Assembly (NCBI GenBank): GCA_043754515.1
Contig: JAYUUO010000026.1
Span: 1 to 18,570, forward strand
Source: Armatimonadota bacterium
GTDB lineage: Bacteria > Armatimonadota > Armatimonadia > Armatimonadales > Armatimonadaceae
Length of the DNA: 18,570 nt
Direction of reading: 5' to 3'
Below the pieces are notes generated by a model that worked only from the letters and a program-made list of their open reading frames with translations, ran no database searches and was not told where the DNA came from. Shown one piece after another: positions 10,090 through 18,570 of this stretch (its first letter is position 1; every line of letters starts with the position of its first letter). Made by a program: the position numbers and the translations under genes.

Positions 10090-13000
10090 CTACTCCCGCG
10101 AGCAGATCAGCTGGTACGGGCAACGGTCGCACTCGCCGCTCACGGTCGGGGCCACGACCCCGCGCTTCATCCGCTCCACCGCGTCTTTCAGATTTTTAAG
10201 TCGGTTGCATTTCGCCTTAGTTCCAGGCGTTACTGGGAGGTCGACGCCGCCCGCGTGCGGGTAGTAGAATGACACCGCCGCGCCGCCGCGGTCCGAGCAC
10301 TCCGCGCTCTCATGATCCGCGTGCAGTGCATATAACTTCGCGCGGCTATCGTCAGGAGTGGTCTTCGGCACCTGAGTCCCTGACTTGTGACGGCGGTAGA
10401 GTTTCGGGCCTACCGCCGGGGTGATCTCTTCGTCCACGCTGAAGCGGAGTGCGTGTGTCGCGCCGTCCGCGAAGGTGCCGAGCGGTAATGTTTTGGATTG
10501 TCTGTACGCGACGGTGGTGTTTTGCGCGGTCGCGGCCGTCATCTGCTTTTCGATGTGCGAGACCAGCCGCTCCGCCGCCTTCCGGAACAACGGCGTCTGC
10601 CAGTCGGAAACATCAGGCCCCGCTTGCTCCCAATTGCGGGCGAAGGCGGCGCGAAACTTCACCGGGTCACCCCCCGCATCCCGCGCCGCATTATAGACGG
10701 CCTGGTGGTAGTTGAGAAACGCGCTCTCTGTCTGGGGTAGGTCGTAGATTTCCGCGAACAGGTACTTTCGGGGGCATCCCTCGTACAGGCGCAACAGGTA
10801 CTCCGGTATCTCCTCCCGCACCGAGAACGGGATCAACTCCGGGCCGGGGGCGGTCTCATCGCTAGCGGATGTCGTCGGCACCGCTGCTTCGTATGCGGAC
10901 GCAATGTCGTCGCCCGAGGCGCACGTCTCCCCGCTCGCCGCCAGATGCTCCGTGACCGCGCTACGCAGAGATGAGATCGCGCCGGCTGAGCGCGACCCGT
11001 ACCGCGCCGCGCTGGATAGGTACAGTTTGTCGCGGGCACGAGTGACCGCGACATAAAAGACGCACGCTTCCTCACGTTCGTGCGCTTCCCCCGGCGTCGC
11101 GTCGTCCGTTTGAATCAAAGGTGGCGGAATCGGTAGCGTATCTTCGCGCTCGCGGACAGGAAATTCACCCTCGACGCAGACCGGGACGAACACCGCGCCC
11201 CATTCCAACCCTTTGCTACTGTGCGCGGTGAGGATAGAGACCGCGTCGCCGACGCGCGGCAACTCGTCTGACACGCCCAGCCCCCCCGACTCGAGCGCGG
11301 CGGAAACGTAGGCGAGGAATGCCCCGGTATCTGTGCCCGTTTCTAGCCGGTCGGCGTCCTCGTCCATTGGCAATTCGGGCGCGTCGGTGGGTGCGGTTTG
11401 GCTGGTCACCGCCTCGCCGGACCCCGCCGCCCCGCCTGTAGAAATCGACGCCACTTCGGCCCGTGCCGCGCTGGCGAGCGCGTCCCGCCCGGTGGCGAAC
11501 GCCGCCGCCAGGTCCAGCGTCTGCCCGACGGTCGCCAGCACAGCCCGTGCCGCGTACTCCGTTTTCGCGTCAGTCGACAGAAGCGAGCGGAACCAGCGGG
11601 CATGCTCGAACAGGTAGACGGACAGGTTGTGGTGCGGGCGGGCGGTCACGGACAGTGCATCGGCGACGCCAAGTAGCTCGCGGCAGACGACGCGCCCCGC
11701 GCCGGATAGTGTCACGATTCCGCCGTACGCCGCCGCTCGTAGGAGTTTCCGCGCCCCCCATCGTCCGCGACGGTCGGCGAACAACGCCCGCCGGTCCGTT
11801 TCCGATAGCGCAAAGTCCGACGTCGTACCCGCGCCTGCGGGCAACATTGAAAGCCCCGCGATCCCTCGCGTATCATCCGCCGCAAGTAGCAACGCACTGA
11901 CGAGAACGCGGAAGACCGGCCGCTCGTGAATAGGCCCCGCCCACCGGTGCGGGATGCCCGCCCGCGTCAGCGCGGCCGCGATCCGCTCGGCGTGGTTGCG
12001 CTTGCGCACCAGCACCGCCATATCACTCAGTGTACGTCCCCTGTCCTCCTCACTTCGGATATGCGCGGCGATCCAATGGTTCTCGGCAGTCACGTCCGGC
12101 AGGTGCGCCGACATTACGGCGGGCGTTCCGTCCTCACTCGCGGGCCGCGTCGCGTTTAAGTCTGGCGGCACGAGACCCGGATGGTTCCCCAAGATCGGGA
12201 CGGGCACCCCGGCACCGGCCCGCACGATAGCGGGAACAGAACGGTAGTTCCGCCCCAGCCGTACCACCGTGGCGGACGGATAATACTCCCCCGTAAAGAA
12301 GCGCGACAAGTTCACCGGGGACGCGCCACGAAACCCGAAGATACTCTGTCGCGGGTCGCCCACCACCCATACCACGCCGCGGCCACCGTCTAGCTCACGC
12401 GTCAGCCCCCCCGACACATAGTTGATGTCCTGGAACTCGTCCACAAGGATGTGCTGGTACCGCTCGCGGATTTCGGCGGCGACCTCCGACACGGTGAACA
12501 GACGCAACGCTTCGGTTTGCAAGTCGCCGTAGTCGAGTAGACCGCGACGACGCAGGGTGCGCTGGTAATCGGCGTAGAACGTCGCGCCGTCCGCGACCCA
12601 ATCCGGCTCTGAACTGGTGTCCGGGTTCGCGTCGCGCCACCCCTGCGCCAGCCGCTCCCATTCCTCCACGCCCGCGTTCTCCTCTTTCGCGCGGCTAACC
12701 GCCTTCAACTGAGTCCGCAGACTTTCGAGCGCGCCGGTGACGCCGCTCAAAAATCCGAACGCTGCATTGGCGGCGCGGCGGCGGCACAGGAGTAGAGCGT
12801 CCATCGGCGTCACCAGTCGCAAAGGCGTTTTGAGGCCGATGCGTCCGCCGTACTGCTGAAGCAGTTGCAGGCCGAATGCGTGAAACGTGAACACCTCGAC
12901 ACTCGCCGCGTGTTCTTCCCCGACCCGCGCCGCGATCCGCTCACGCATTTCGCCCGCCGCGCGGTTCGTGAATGTCAGAGCAAGGATGTGTCTCGGGTGA

Positions 13001-13806
13001 ATCCCCTCCGACACGAGGCGGGCGTAGCGCGAAACCAGAATGCGCGTCTTGCCCGCGCCCGGACCGGCGACGATCAGCGCGGGCGCCGCGCAATCGGCGG
13101 CGGCACGTTGCTCGGGATCAAGGGGCGCGGCAAGATCGTCGTTGACGCTAGCAGGGGGCGGATCGTCACCCGCTCCGGCAGGCGCGGCGAACAAAAGGGT
13201 GTTCGCCATGCCGACCCGCATCAGCGAGTGAGCGACGCCGAAATGTGCCGCAAGCGACCCTACGGTACGAAGGGGACTGGATTCCAGCAGGCGGCGCAGT
13301 TCGTCGCCCGGCACCAATAGCTCGGTCGCGAACGCGTTCGCCTGAATCTCGTAGTAGTCACGCTCGTTATAGCCGCGCAGGAGCGTCATCGCGTGTTCGG
13401 ACAGGTCTAGCCCGGTGAGTTGCGCTTGCCGTCCCGCCGACAGGTCGCCGGACGCGATATCGGGGTTGATCGTCGCGGCGGTGTCGGCGAGCACGGCGTG
13501 GAGCGGGTGATCCAACGCGTGATGCCCTATCTCGTGCGCGATCACGAAGGCGGCGCGTTCCGTCGGGAGGCCAGGGCGGATCAGGATTAAACCGTCCACG
13601 CGGTTCAGTTCGCCTTCAATATTGGTGCCCGCGAGACTTTCGTCGTTTATCACGGTCAGCCCGAAGACAAGCTCGGCGACCTGTTCGAGCAGGGCGCGGA
13701 GCGGGATGGCCTCGCCGAGTGTCCCACGCGGCGTCCCCCCACGCGCAACGAACTCCTCGTTCCAGAGGCGGCTAACGCGCTTCTGGATTAGCACGGCGGC
13801 ATCCAC
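10090..13806 (-). CDS. Fusion protein: ImmA/IrrE (M78) metallopeptidase + UvrD/PcrA SF1 helicase + C-terminal AddB/Cas4-like Fe-S PD-(D/E)XK-like domain
   Basis: FVIAHEIGH (HEIGH at 13522-13536) and EIQANAFATELLVP; AGPGAGKT (13045-13068), ALTFTNRAA, LVDEFQD (DEFQD at 12427-12441), VGDPRQSIFGFRG, NYRS, TAHSSKGLEW, FYVAVTRAR; YEGCPRKY ... CDRCPYQLIC. GTG start 6 bp after the upstream stop. Confidence 0.9.
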   Translation of the reverse strand: MDAAVLIQKRVSRLWNEEFVARGGTPRGTLGEAIPLRALLEQVAELVFGLTVINDESLAGTNIEGELNRVDGLILIRPGLPTERAAFVIAHEIGHHALDHPLHAVLADTAATINPDIASGDLSAGRQAQLTGLDLSEHAMTLLRGYNERDYYEIQANAFATELLVPGDELRRLLESSPLRTVGSLAAHFGVAHSLMRVGMANTLLFAAPAGAGDDPPPASVNDDLAAPLDPEQRAAADCAAPALIVAGPGAGKTRILVSRYARLVSEGIHPRHILALTFTNRAAGEMRERIAARVGEEHAASVEVFTFHAFGLQLLQQYGGRIGLKTPLRLVTPMDALLLCRRRAANAAFGFLSGVTGALESLRTQLKAVSRAKEENAGVEEWERLAQGWRDANPDTSSEPDWVADGATFYADYQRTLRRRGLLDYGDLQTEALRLFTVSEVAAEIRERYQHILVDEFQDINYVSGGLTRELDGGRGVVWVVGDPRQSIFGFRGASPVNLSRFFTGEYYPSATVVRLGRNYRSVPAIVRAGAGVPVPILGNHPGLVPPDLNATRPASEDGTPAVMSAHLPDVTAENHWIAAHIRSEEDRGRTLSDMAVLVRKRNHAERIAAALTRAGIPHRWAGPIHERPVFRVLVSALLLAADDTRGIAGLSMLPAGAGTTSDFALSETDRRALFADRRGRWGARKLLRAAAYGGIVTLSGAGRVVCRELLGVADALSVTARPHHNLSVYLFEHARWFRSLLSTDAKTEYAARAVLATVGQTLDLAAAFATGRDALASAARAEVASISTGGAAGSGEAVTSQTAPTDAPELPMDEDADRLETGTDTGAFLAYVSAALESGGLGVSDELPRVGDAVSILTAHSSKGLEWGAVFVPVCVEGEFPVREREDTLPIPPPLIQTDDATPGEAHEREEACVFYVAVTRARDKLYLSSAARYGSRSAGAISSLRSAVTEHLAASGETCASGDDIASAYEAAVPTTSASDETAPGPELIPFSVREEIPEYLLRLYEGCPRKYLFAEIYDLPQTESAFLNYHQAVYNAARDAGGDPVKFRAAFARNWEQAGPDVSDWQTPLFRKAAERLVSHIEKQMTAATAQNTTVAYRQSKTLPLGTFADGATHALRFSVDEEITPAVGPKLYRRHKSGTQVPKTTPDDSRAKLYALHADHESAECSDRGGAAVSFYYPHAGGVDLPVTPGTKAKCNRLKNLKDAVERMKRGVVAPTVSGECDRCPYQLICSRE

Positions 13807-13812
13807 TCGTGG

Positions 13813-14589
13813 TTACGCCCCCGCGCCGTCGGAGCTATTCGGGCCGATGTCCGCGGCTACGCCCACCCAGTAGGCGGTCTGTTCCGGGGTAAGTGCCGTC
13901 CGTATCCGCTCGAACTCGGCGTCGAAGTCCTCGGTTGCCCCCCGCCGCTCGCGCACCAGGTCGGATTCGGGCACGCCCCGCGCCGAGTAGGCCGCTGCGG
14001 TGACCAGGGGGGAATTTGCACCCGTCGCTTGAAGCACCGCCCGCGCCTGCTCGCGGCTAACAGTTAGGGCGTCCGCGACAGCCCGCGTCAGTCGCTCGGG
14101 CCAATCCCGGAACTGCCCGCGCTCGATCTTTAAAAGTAACTCCTTCGGCACATACAGCCGCCGCGCCAGTTCCGCCAGACTCCAGCCGCGCGCCTTGCGC
14201 TCCTCACCGAGCGCGGCCGCGACAGAGACGGCTGGCTCCCTTAGCAGCACGGAAGCACTCGCGGCACGTGTCAGTCCGAGTTGCGACCGGGCAGCGGCGA
14301 TTCCGGCGTCCGCCGCCGCGATGAACTCCGTCGTGTACTCGGCCTTATCTTCGCGGAGCCGCTGTTCGGCGGGCAATACTATCAGAACGGCATCCAGTAG
14401 CGGCGCGGCGTAGCGAGGGTAGCGGCGCGCGACGCGGTCGTACGCTCCCCCCTCGCCGGATTCCATCGCGAGCAACAGTTCATCCAGCGCGGTCTCATAA
14501 AGCGGCTCGTCGAGTAGCGATCCGAACCCCAGAGTAGCCGCATCGTCGGTAGGGGCGGACGTCGTTTCGTTTTCGTTTGGTGTATTCAT
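13813..14589 (-). CDS. XRE-family helix-turn-helix protein with an N-terminal helical extension
   Basis: LGEERKARGWSLAELARRLYVPKELLLKIERGQ is an HTH_3/XRE pattern; AGGAG upstream. Confidence 0.8.
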   Translation of the reverse strand: MNTPNENETTSAPTDDAATLGFGSLLDEPLYETALDELLLAMESGEGGAYDRVARRYPRYAAPLLDAVLIVLPAEQRLREDKAEYTTEFIAAADAGIAAARSQLGLTRAASASVLLREPAVSVAAALGEERKARGWSLAELARRLYVPKELLLKIERGQFRDWPERLTRAVADALTVSREQARAVLQATGANSPLVTAAAYSARGVPESDLVRERRGATEDFDAEFERIRTALTPEQTAYWVGVAADIGPNSSDGAGA

Positions 14590-14652: not shown

Positions 14653-15480
14653 TTAATAGGTCGCGGCGAGGTAGTCGCCGTACTCACCGTGGGAGGCGTG
14701 ACGCGCCCGCGCCCATGCGTGCATGTCGGCGCGCGCCCTCTCTATGTAGTTATAAACGGTCTTCTCGGAACGCACACCGAGTATCCGCGCGATCGCGGCG
14801 TGTGTCAATCCGCGAACGGAAAGGAGAATCGCCTCGCGGTGGCGCGGATCACGGACGGCTTCCAGAAGCGAATCTAGCGCGGCCTCCTCAAATAGCGTTT
14901 TGAGCGCGGAATTTGAGTCGGGGTCATGCGACTCGGCGAGCATATCTCCGGTATCGTCGCCCGACGCGGCGAGTGGGCGATCCGCCTCGCGCTGTTCGCG
15001 GGGGTAAGCGGGGGCGTCGCTGTCGCCACCCGGTTTTACCCACTCGCGCCCGTAGCCCCGTTGCACTCCGCGCGTAAACAGGTTGTAGGCCAGACGTTTG
15101 AGACAGGTCCAGAACATCACCGGCTTCTCCCAACCTCGCGCACTCTCACCGCTTCCCAGATCCTGCCACTTCTGATACAGCGCGAGGGTGAGGTCGCGCG
15201 CGCCATCCGTGGTCAACGACGTGTCGTGGAGGTAGGCGTTAGCGTATGCTAAGAGTCTCCCCCGAGTTAGATCGAGCGCGCGTTCGCACGCGGCGTCGCC
15301 ACGACGCTTCGCATCGTCCGCCTTAGCCAGTTCCCCGCGTTCCCGGTGCGCCGCTTCGCACTTCCAGTGGCGGCGCATCTCTGTCACCAGGCCCGCGCAC
15401 TCGGTCGCCTTGTTCGCGCCGCCGACGCCTCGGGCGGGGGAAGGGTCGGGATGATTCGTCGTGGATTGCGTCGGGTTCAT
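14653..15480 (-). CDS. ECF-type sigma-70 family RNA polymerase sigma factor (divergent)
   Basis: Region-2-like LLAYANAYL..ARDLTLALYQKW..FWTCLKRLAYNLF; region-4 HTH PRHREAILLSVRGLTHAAIARILGVRSEKTVYNYIERARADM; AGGA SD. Confidence 0.8.
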   Translation of the reverse strand: MNPTQSTTNHPDPSPARGVGGANKATECAGLVTEMRRHWKCEAAHRERGELAKADDAKRRGDAACERALDLTRGRLLAYANAYLHDTSLTTDGARDLTLALYQKWQDLGSGESARGWEKPVMFWTCLKRLAYNLFTRGVQRGYGREWVKPGGDSDAPAYPREQREADRPLAASGDDTGDMLAESHDPDSNSALKTLFEEAALDSLLEAVRDPRHREAILLSVRGLTHAAIARILGVRSEKTVYNYIERARADMHAWARARHASHGEYGDYLAATY

Positions 15481-15812: not shown

Positions 15813-15852
15813 TATCCTGATTCATGTTGGGTGGCAATGGCAACGCGGAACA

Positions 15853-15861
15853 TGGTATTAT
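15853..15861 (+). promoter_or_regulatory. Extended -10 promoter (TG-G-TATTAT) directly upstream of the structured region
   Basis: TGgTATTAT; predicted TSS ~15866-15868 coincides with the first base-paired nucleotides. Confidence 0.6.
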
Positions 15862-15917
15862 ATATACGTAATCGCGCTGGAGTTCGCTAGAAGAGGGAAC
15901 CAGGTGTGAATTACGTG

Positions 15918-15959
15918 GCGACCGCGTAGTTCAGTAGGAGCATACGACGGTCGTTTTTT
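15918..15959 (+). terminator. Intrinsic terminator (3:4 stem of a putative attenuator)
   Basis: GCGACCG(15918-15924)/CGGTCGT(15948-15954) with inner CGTA/TACG and GTTC/GAGC pairs, then TTTTTT (15954-15959). Confidence 0.65.
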
Positions 15960-16365
15960 GTTACCTAAGTAGGAGTTACGCGGTTGGCGGTTTCGGATGC
16001 CCGGATCTGTCCGTCCCACCCGCAAGCGGGTACCCAATGTCCGGCTACGAAGTAGCCTAGACAGGCAATCGTCAAAACAAGTTTTGACTGTACTTGTTTC
16101 GCCGATGACATGGGTTTCAACCCGCGTTCTTAATGAACCGTGTAACTCCTACCTAATATACCCCCTCATCAACACCGATGTGTCGGCGTCGCCAGCAATG
16201 GACCTGCTGTCAGACCTTGCGGGTGTCAGAATTCGAGCTAGGTATCCTCAGCCCCTGACGCGGTACCGACTCTAAAGTCCTTGACCATTCGCCCACCCCG
16301 GTGGATTTATTGATGTGTCTCCTACCAGGCATATGTATGGCTCGCATGCTTCGGAAAACATATGT

Positions 16366-16419
16366 GTTTCCTGGAAGGGCACTGTTTCTTGGTTAGAAAA
16401 CAGTGCCTTTTCAGGAAAC
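16366..16419. terminator. 22-bp hairpin between the candidate RNA and the convergent DUF1573 gene
   Basis: GTTTCCTGGAAGGGCACTGTTT / AAACAGTGCCTTTTCAGGAAAC with two G-U pairs on +; 7 nt from the minus-strand stop at 16427. Confidence 0.6.
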
Positions 16420-16426
16420 TAATTGT

Positions 16427-16828
16427 TTACTTCCTCCATATAAACACGTACACCGGTCGGGTTCGGAAGCCCTGCCGCGCCGTGAAGCGCAACGCCTCTG
16501 TTCGTTCGCCGACTGACGCCGCCTCGAAAGCCACCGTGAACGCTCCCGATTGGTGGGGCAGGATAGTTGTTGCGGGCGTCACGACGCGGACGCAGGCGCA
16601 ACCGGTCATCGGCGGCGGCATGACAGTGAGCGGCAGGAGGTACGACGGGTTGCGGAAGATGACGGTGCGCGGCGTATCGCGCTCGTAAGGTAGCGTAACG
16701 GACTCTGTGTGATTCTGCCACCGATATTCTGGCATGGCTTTAAGTGCGGTGAGGGAGGCAACGACTGTAGCAGTCGCAATTACCTCCCAACTATTTCTTG
16801 ACAGCGATCCAGAAATCCTAGTTTGCAA
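16427..16828 (-). CDS. Small DUF1573-like Ig-fold protein with N-terminal hydrophobic segment
   Basis: FRNPSYLLPLTV..TGCACVRV..TILPHQSGAFTVAF fits the DUF1573 pattern. Start uncertain: TTG 16828 overlaps the upstream stop; the ORF is open to 16870. Confidence 0.6.
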   Translation of the reverse strand: MQTRISGSLSRNSWEVIATATVVASLTALKAMPEYRWQNHTESVTLPYERDTPRTVIFRNPSYLLPLTVMPPPMTGCACVRVVTPATTILPHQSGAFTVAFEAASVGERTEALRFTARQGFRTRPVYVFIWRK

Positions 16829-17430
16829 CTTGAACTTTATAGTCGGATCTTTCCAGTGCTGCGTCCGCATACATCTTAACGGTTTTGCTGTTAGATGAGA
16901 CGAAGGGCAAGATTACAGCCACTGACTCCTGTCGGTGCATATTGCTCAGGATAGCAATATCCATACTCACTGCAAACTCTTTGTGATCTGTGTTGATGAC
17001 CGGCGATTCGCTTGTCAACTTGTTCGAGATGAAAATGAACAGATCATCTTGTTGTAGCTTCGTCAGGCGATTTGATGCCACACACTGTATCAACAAAGCC
17101 ACAATCGAGAAGTGGCGTAGATCCTCGATTTGTGGATCATTGACAGGAGCAACCTGTTTGACTTTTTGTATAAGCCAATCAGCATCAGCGTCTGTTATTC
17201 GGTTTTCTTCCATGAATGTTTTATTGATTTTCGCGAACATCTCGGCATCAACACCCTGAAAAAAATGCAGTTTGGTTATGTTTTGCTTGCTCTTTTCGAG
17301 ATCATACATAAGTTTTAGCGCTTCGTGTCTTGAATCTATCCATTAGCCATCCCGAGCCGATCCATGCAAACACCAACAGGTTCGAGCATAACAGGATTAG
17401 AAATATCCTGTTTATAGTTTTTCTTTGCAT
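16818..17430 (-). pseudogene. Membrane-anchored alpha-helical (HEAT-like C-terminus) protein apparently split by a 1-bp frameshift near 17343
   Basis: ATG 17430 opens a 42-aa TM ORF (MQRKTINRIFLILLCSNLLVFAWIGSGWL...) ending at TGA 17302-17304. The 163-aa ORF (16818..17309) is open back to 17342. Removing one base gives ..GSGWLWIDSRHEALKLMYDLEK.. Two coupled genes remain possible. Confidence 0.5.
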
Positions 17431-17506
17431 GATTTTTGCGTTTTAGGGGCCTAAGATAGGCCACCAACAAACACCTATGGCAGCGTACCTCAGAGTCTTC
17501 ACGCTC

Positions 17507-17765
17507 CTAATTCAATCCGCCTATGTTCTTCAAGCACATGAACTTAACGCACAAGGTGACACATTCGGCATAACCAAACGGCCCCGTTTCGATTGTGGCA
17601 ATACATCCTGCGGTACATTCTACTGCACAGAGACCGAGATTGACACCAGGTGTCTGCGGAGACTGGCCGCGCCGTCATGACGGCTATTCCCCCCACGAGT
17701 GAGGCGGACAATACTGCGATCATCACGAGTTGCTTTACATAACTAGGCTGTTTGACCATTTTCAT
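17507..17765 (-). pseudogene. Secreted six-cysteine peptide precursor, apparently frameshifted just after the signal peptide
   Basis: Signal MKMVKQPSYVKQLVMIAVLSASLVGGIAVMTARPVSA from ATG 17765. The +1 frame reads PGVNLGLCAVECTAGCIATIETGPFGYAECVTLCVKFMCLKNIGGLN* (TAG 17507-17509) and has no start codon of its own. Confidence 0.6.
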
Positions 17766-17775
17766 TGCTCCATTC

Positions 17776-18570
17776 TCACATTCTGGTCGCCATGATAACA
17801 ACTAGTACCGGTACGACGATTCGCGGTTGTTTCTCGCTACCGGTGGCGATAACAATCCGTTCGTTCAGCACGCTCCCCGAAAGGAATGCGCCGGGCAAAA
17901 TTGTGACATGGAGAGTGGCTTGAGCATCCGACGATCTTTCGACTCGGGCGGATACTCCCTTCGGCGCGGAAACGACCCGAAAGTCGGGGGGCGGGCCTGG
18001 CGCGACGGTGGACAGGATCGCGGTCAATTCGACCGTCTTACTACTCTTGCTGACGAGTCCGAAGTTGAGTAGATCGGGCGACGTGATGAATTGACCACTC
18101 GCGGTGTAGGACACGGGAATTCGCACCGGAGGCAGGCTCACATCGGTCGGCGTGAGAGTCATCGTCACCTGCTTCGCGCCCGGAAGGCGGGACGCGACCG
18201 CCATGACGCTGACAGTCGCTACTTTAAAACCGGCATCGGGAGTGATGGTGGCGCGGACGCCGTCTGACGCGAGAGGTTTAGCGAATGCGACCGCGCCGCC
18301 CGAAACGCGGTGTATGGAAACAGTGGCGGTCTTCGTCTCGCCACCCGGTATCGTGCCGAGTTCCAGTATGCCGGATGGGCTGACGCGCCACTCGGTCTTC
18401 ACCGTTCCACCGAGTGACAGCGTGATCGGCTCGTCCGGCGTCTCGGTGATGAAGATCGAGACCTGTTTCTCAATGGCTCCGGGGCGGCCGGATGAGTCGA
18501 AAGTGACGGCGAGCGGCACGGAGCCACGCGCGGGAACGAAGGACAGTCTCCCGGTCGAGGTGCAACCACA
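17776..18570 (-). CDS. DUF1573 domain protein with additional Ig-like domains; 5' end lies beyond the window
   Basis: Frame is open to the window end: CGCTSTGRLSFVPARGSVPLAVTFDSSGRPGAIEKQVSIF (DUF1573 CGCT motif); repeats SPSGILELGTI and SPDLLNFGLV start further Ig-like domains. Confidence 0.8.
   Translation of the reverse strand, partial: CGCTSTGRLSFVPARGSVPLAVTFDSSGRPGAIEKQVSIFITETPDEPITLSLGGTVKTEWRVSPSGILELGTIPGGETKTATVSIHRVSGGAVAFAKPLASDGVRATITPDAGFKVATVSVMAVASRLPGAKQVTMTLTPTDVSLPPVRIPVSYTASGQFITSPDLLNFGLVSKSSKTVELTAILSTVAPGPPPDFRVVSAPKGVSARVERSSDAQATLHVTILPGAFLSGSVLNERIVIATGSEKQPRIVVPVLVVIMATRM

Follow-up and report, generated by a model that had tools for sequence, protein, structure and literature searches.

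The flagged region of 554 nucleotides, at positions 15866-16419 of the window (the whole stretch of 18,570 nucleotides that was analysed, contig C26 of an Armatimonadaceae genome labelled G000), is almost certainly a juxtaposition of three unrelated neighbours: a likely gene of a small RNA of about 92 nucleotides, a 182-bp MITE, and unconserved DNA. An earlier note had read the same stretch as a single structured RNA of some 550 nucleotides, possibly the output or cofactor of the adjacent sigma-HTH-helicase operon. The apparent large RNA results from these parts lying side by side, and the striking features of the stretch are explained by a routine MITE of the IS701 type. The MITE, the RNA family and the absence of linkage to the operon are matters of observation. 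The complete reading to which we lean adds that the 92-nt RNA stands alone and would regulate other genes in trans, plausibly with its conserved 5' end pairing to targets with the help of Hfq.

Folded in one piece, the region has a z-score of -6.60 on the + strand and -5.97 on the - strand relative to shuffles, and its minimum free energy structure has 17 G-U pairs on + and 17 on -. Since both strands fold about equally well, with 17 G-U pairs each, the region as a whole gives no pointer to an RNA: the + strand does fold beyond its shuffles, a check that the earlier note had proposed, but not in a strand-specific way, and the + strand bias in G-U pairs that the note had seen vanishes at this scale. 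Folded separately, segment 15866-15962 yields -5.84 (+) against -2.16 (-), the MITE yields -5.97 and -5.84, and the end hairpin, -7.6 and -7.1; the values for the DNA between these last two are given in Table 1. Counted by part, + against -, there are 6 G-U pairs versus 1 in 15868-15960, 2 versus 1 in the end hairpin, and the reverse, 1 versus 4, in the MITE. A blastn search of the genome against itself finds many copies of 15970-16151, finds 15828-15962 repeated elsewhere by itself, and leaves 16152-16419 unique.

Table 1. Features of the flagged region and of the neighbouring operon, in window coordinates.
Feature	Position	Strand	Remarks
M78 peptidase-UvrD-PD(D/E)XK fusion	10090-13806	-	operon member
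HTH protein	13813-14589	-	operon member
Sigma-70 region-4 protein	14653..15480	-	first gene of the operon, outside the RNA unit (Pfam)
Predicted sigma-70-type promoter	15832..15861	+	-35 TGGCAA at 15832-37; 18-nt spacer; extended -10 TG-N-TATTAT at 15853-61 (TG 15853-54, TATTAT 15856-61)
Predicted 92-nt small RNA	15868..15959	+	hairpin 1 at 15868-15914; terminator-type hairpin 2 at 15917-15955; U6 tail at 15954-59
Left target-site duplication CCTAA	15964..15968		one extra G at 15969; repeated at 16152-16156
182-bp MITE	15970..16151		16-bp terminal inverted repeats of IS701 element, interior of small hairpins; identified by copies, ends and depth
Right target-site duplication CCTAA	16152..16156		copy of 15964-15968
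Unstructured, unconserved DNA	16152..16365		folding z +0.23 (+) and -0.50 (-); no real match elsewhere
22-bp inverted repeat, single-copy	16366..16419		separated by 7 nt from the stop of the - strand ORF 16427-16870; neither strand has a U-run

Most of the individual signals reported in the earlier note are in place: the extended -10, the 22-bp hairpin with two G-U pairs on the + strand, and all four occurrences of GTAGGAG (15934 and 15969) and CTCCTAC (16146 and 16319). Their meaning is another matter. The pair 15969/16146 is the terminal inverted repeat of the MITE, which contributes this long-range pair and most small helices of the region, so that the nested pairing and the dense helices, taken as features of an RNA, both turn out to be part of an inserted element; the GTAGGAG at 15934 sits in the variable terminator loop of the small RNA. 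A single unit of 550 nucleotides is further contradicted by a terminator-type hairpin with six T, ending at 15959, only 92 nucleotides past the predicted start. The claim of a new + strand non-coding RNA behind the extended -10 and outside Rfam likely stands, with its size and anatomy revised from 550 nucleotides to about 92.

The region yields no significant RNA of a known family and, in the frames scanned, no convincing gene. The 92-aa ORF at 15997-16275 has no Pfam match at E<=0.01 and no PADLOC match, and a small ORF across the RNA, open in some copies, meets an early stop in the window copy. Rfam 15 gives no match in the window at the gathering cut-off: there are just four chance matches of miRNA hairpins, far under their cut-offs, all on the end hairpin and none on the small RNA. 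No tRNA or tmRNA is called in the window, and the tmRNA of the genome is on contig C234.

Within its own genome, the MITE has 43 blastn matches at E<=1e-5, from which 23 near-full copies were aligned; matches of at least 170 nt number 24, at 74-100% identity. The exact 16-mer of the MITE end was counted 50 times and its reversed control 0 times. Exact direct repeats of 4 bp or more, mostly 5-6 bp, flank 13 of 25 complete copies, or 14 when the one-base offset of the window copy is included; among 600 mismatched flank pairs, 7 show such a repeat. Contig depth in run X2 climbs from about 20 to 1426-2190 over the MITE, with loose ends exactly at 15970 and 16151. The same ends are found on a 1100-bp element (L137 in genome G049) that encodes an intact IS701 transposase of 335 amino acids (NF049921, 372.6 bits versus a cut-off of 250). 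A related IS is visible in G000 as 99-nt ends that lie at the ends of contigs C298, C128 and C226 and match broken metagenome copies. No joint corresponding to an allelic empty site appears among the contigs of eight runs, none of which spans the stretch.

The element is thus multi-copy, shorter than 600 bp, bounded by terminal inverted repeats, devoid of a transposase, flanked by a target duplication mostly of 5-6 bp, and shares its ends with a full autonomous IS, here IS701. In all of this it resembles MITEs mobilised by IS transposases, as defined for Microcystis aeruginosa (PMC2779907). Unlike these, it has an interior grown by nested small hairpins, its forms of 123, 145 and 182 bp differing by hairpin-sized inserts, and no intact partner transposase was found in the assembly, where the single DDE_5 match is another element. 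Two of the inserts also occur once each outside the MITE. Across the order, 23 of 71 genomes contain further MITEs (for example G002:C208:6363-6402 and G049:C4:3092917-3093000) that are 40 to about 220 bp long and share these terminal repeats but not the interior, and the IS701 transposase copies L045, L046, L138 and L024 are interrupted by short hairpin-like inserts.

The DNA behind the MITE, taken as 16152-16430, has no real match in its own genome or in plasmids, and in 70 other genomes of the order, just one match of 36 nucleotides, at E 0.005, to the end hairpin. A resemblance of 16152-16272 to a RelA/SpoT motif was dropped because its three short frames gave only a chance match to Laminin_B. 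The - strand ORF next to the hairpin has a weak DUF1573 match and looks like a chimeric remnant. Segments 16440-16692 and 17802-18464 have copies at 90-96% on G000:C293, and a low-GC insert (about 16800-17600, GC 0.43) lies between these duplicated pieces.

We now turn to the small RNA. Its predicted start, near 15868, is placed from the position of the -10 box; a simple promoter/terminator scan lists neither this promoter nor the terminator. In the family described below, the -10 box is TATACT, TATTAT or TATAAT in 58 of 69 members, the hexamer 18 nt upstream of it is mostly TTGACA, TGGCGA or TGGCAA, and the TG extension is present in 44 of 68; these counts lean high because the promoter was part of the search model. 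Five of the six matches of the promoter pattern in the genome itself are followed by the family terminator. The members measure 55-132 nt (median 86, n=69), and combine conserved ends with a variable middle: a start of the ATAGTCG type, a hairpin 1 with a purine-rich internal loop, and a terminator base GCGAC/GTCGC that is 80-96% conserved before the T-run, its pairs being near-invariant (88-96%) and without covariation.

When 10 close copies are aligned plainly, 94.6% of cells pair and 7 of 28 pairs have changed on both sides; none of 500 shuffles reached either value and slid controls fall far below, covariation counts being inflated by the kinship of the copies. An alignment fitted to the model gives the same picture of covariation, but leans toward structure. 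The + strand folds better in just 38 of the 69 members, so the call of the strand rests on the promoter and the U-tail. Judged from these sequence features, a real transcribed RNA gene is probable. The one run on record as RNA, X19, contains just a MITE copy from another site.

Paralogs of the RNA lie on contigs C28, C125, C263 and C246 of the same genome, the first with the same upstream DNA and RNA but without the MITE. Two of these paralogs, at G000:C263:6002-6157 and G000:C246:343-499, are long family members of about 132 nt with three hairpins, and the one on C263 lies upstream of a phage-like gene. A first model, R1, built from seven copies, matched 20 times, in 7 of the 32 genomes of the family. 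Model R2, built from these 20, gives 67 matches in 18 of the 32 genomes and 10 of the 12 genera, with 1-9 matches per positive genome and 5 in G000; some of those scoring around 30-40 bits may be generic promoter-terminator units. Genus g5, with 10 genomes, has no R2 match, and 145 genomes outside the family, under stricter filters, have two weak ones. An exact gapped-pattern search through 185,579 species genomes returns 19 matches, all in genomes titled Armatimonadota; viral contigs give 0. The aligned set of 69 consists of 65 of the 67 R2 matches, the two from outside the family, and two more found in loci.

Sixteen small-RNA loci compared with Rfam have 0 matches at E<=1, and searches of open-access paper listings found no description of such a family, nor of any RNA family for phylum Armatimonadota. 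The 92-nt RNA is likely to represent an uncatalogued, multi-copy family of small RNAs of the Armatimonadaceae, absent from Rfam. Its copies sit next to unrelated genes (HsdM, glyoxalase, ATP synthase beta, SRAP, 2'-5' RNA ligase and others). Evaluated by codon score, the next downstream gene is convergent in 23 of the 69 cases, on the same strand in 19 and undecided in 27; a cruder call gives 35, 33 and 1. Since the neighbours are unrelated and downstream genes are found on either strand, we consider the unit as stand-alone rather than as a leader. However, of the first 20 matches, 12 have a downstream gene supported by Pfam; 9 of these genes are on the same strand and several lie within 45 nt, which allows for read-through.

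The small RNA has no demonstrated tie to the sigma-HTH-helicase operon. Homologous operons exist in G004, G006, G016 and G005, the last with a helicase that is 53% identical over 1272 residues. In none of the four loci does R2 have a match at E<=1, upstream coverage in G004 and G016 being about 0.8-0.9 kb, nor does it in three loci with weaker sigma matches, and a blastn search with the upstream region is equally empty. This comparison of regions upstream of homologous sigma genes, suggested by the earlier note itself, speaks against the RNA as output or cofactor of the operon. Peptide patterns reveal no sigma homologs in a collection of genome contigs. Only two of the 69 model matches are adjacent to this sigma gene, the window copy and the copy on C28, where the sigma gene is truncated and 87% identical. 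The end of C26 overlaps the start of C28 by 18 nt, and the C28 copy is a local duplication.

A single 550-nt RNA serving this operon could still invoke the overall z-score and the fact that the second copy in the genome also adjoins a sigma gene, albeit truncated. But a third of it is MITE and 214 nucleotides are unstructured, its two sigma-linked copies amount to one local duplication, the four homologous operons have no RNA match nearby, and three genomes of the same genus (G001-G003) carry 14 copies of the RNA and no match to the sigma protein. Moreover, a single contig of run X8, a run that is probably DNA, has 16193-16301 behind different DNA. This reading is largely refuted, and we find it barely credible.

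The operon recurs in at least four other family genomes (L127, L128, L129, L130), and resembles a regulatory module triggered by DNA damage or defence; PADLOC gives domain-level matches for the helicase and HTH proteins only. Upstream of the closest homologous operon, at L127 3300-4574, two small genes that look HEPN/nucleotidyltransferase-like by eye are found instead of the RNA. The overlap between C26 and C28 (G000:C28:1-930, window 17776-18570) suggests a tandem duplication of the sigma start and the small RNA, and the truncated sigma copy is out of frame with a DUF1573-like gene.

How could such an RNA work? RNA polymerase would start at about 15868 and stop at the U-run ending at 15959, ahead of a MITE that would have landed later, 10 bp behind the terminator, moved in trans by an IS701 transposase. 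A hairpin with a U-tail would serve to load Hfq. Targets would be recognised by the first 12-15 nt, which are better conserved than the bases they pair with; OmrA and OmrB, the sibling sRNAs of Enterobacterales whose conserved ends surround a variable middle (PMC12692685), are the precedent. With this pair, the family has in common paralogs of about 80-90 nt in which the 5' and 3' ends are conserved and the middle varies, an intrinsic terminator and the presence of Hfq in the host; as far as sequence can tell, it also has its own promoter, a U-tail on its terminator and a stand-alone position. It differs by the lack of any sequence relation (no Rfam match), by up to nine scattered copies versus a tandem pair, and by a 5' end that is predicted to be paired.

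Within a subfamily of 19 members, hardly any change is seen in the first 12 nt, although their partner strand is variable, and between subfamilies the first 8 nt differ. Hfq is found in 32 of 32 family genomes, usually as two homologs (in G000, at G000:C239:3695-3886 and C47:1976-2125), but it is permissive only, because 14 of these genomes have Hfq and no RNA. In the window copy, pairing is predicted for nearly the whole 5' end, unlike an open seed, and on family average this end is partly open; a crude target scan of 2997 start regions does no better than shuffled seeds. That the RNA acts in trans, rather than as a cis leader, is probable; that it does so by a 5' seed and Hfq-assisted pairing is a tentative proposal.

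The main rival to Hfq-assisted pairing keeps the same composite, but has the small RNAs bind and titrate a protein, with no pairing to mRNAs. CsrB, RsmY and RsmZ are protein-titrating RNAs that are multi-copy, stand-alone, and run from promoter to terminator, as does the family. The many unlinked copies behind strong promoters, the scarcity of single-stranded sequence, the variable linker, and the near-invariant terminator-base pairs and purine-rich loop described above would all fit such a role. However, CsrA was not found in the genome, which is 92.7% complete, and ANGGA, far from being repeated in loops, is missing from 50 of the 69 members, so that identity with CsrB/Rsm fails. The logic of Y RNAs does not fare better. 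YrlA (PMC4201824) is characterized by a GNCGAAN0-1G motif, a tRNA-like domain and a position adjacent to Ro60: the family resembles it by a conserved 5' strand with GNCGA in 18 of 69 members and by the occurrence of TROVE proteins, but the full motif is in 0 of 69, no tRNA is called, an intrinsic terminator is present, and R2 has no match near a TROVE gene (loci L093 and L094). TROVE proteins occur in just 12 of the 18 RNA-positive genomes, and in 4 of the 14 RNA-negative ones. We consider titration unlikely, and its boldest version a long shot: the RNA would found a CsrA-free titrating class, in which the 5'-strand motif and the invariant terminator base bind a global regulator, and the cassette is copied so fast that no two genomes share a location, its copy number setting the regulator dose.

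A cis-acting leader or attenuator, with regulated read-through from promoter and terminator into the next gene, is improbable. It would account for the several copies that leave 20-45 nt between their end and a gene on the same strand (SRAP, DUF6027, PPDK-like, HsdM) and, on inspection of the sequence, pairing is possible between the 5' GUCG and the terminator strand with CGAC. An attenuator, though, should always lie upstream of a same-strand gene: of the 42 decidable copies, 23 are followed by a convergent gene, and some of these genes end no more than 15 nt from the U-run. In addition, the downstream genes have no common function, the 5' end and the terminator strand do not co-change on inspection, and no gene on the same strand follows the window copy. 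Finally, the unit of promoter, RNA and terminator might be a cassette that spreads selfishly or passively, with an RNA that regulates nothing. The variation in copy number, from 0 to 9 per family genome, and the absence of shared sites agree with this: in a search for empty sites, none of 64 foreign copies has both flanks adjacent in G000, and none lies at a site matching a G000 copy. Yet no terminal repeats or target duplications are seen around the unit by inspection, a promoter that lies outside the RNA argues against RNA-mediated copying, and the helices are maintained by compensatory changes; we judge this reading quite improbable. Two other ideas were discarded. For a type I antitoxin, the longest complementarity to the flanks of each copy is at control level, except in one tandem pair of copies, and a small hydrophobic ORF is near 11 of 69 members, with no common family by inspection. 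Similarities seen in the hairpins to tRNA D-arms, T-loops, boxB and a 9-mer of 16S rRNA were dropped because they are not conserved across members.

Beyond this locus, a word of caution is in order, as MITEs made of nested hairpins can mimic big structured RNAs. For the Armatimonadaceae, our preferred reading leaves a family of small RNAs with up to nine copies per genome that are never at a shared site between the compared genomes, a behaviour that is unusual for sibling sRNAs, and whose function and spread are testable.
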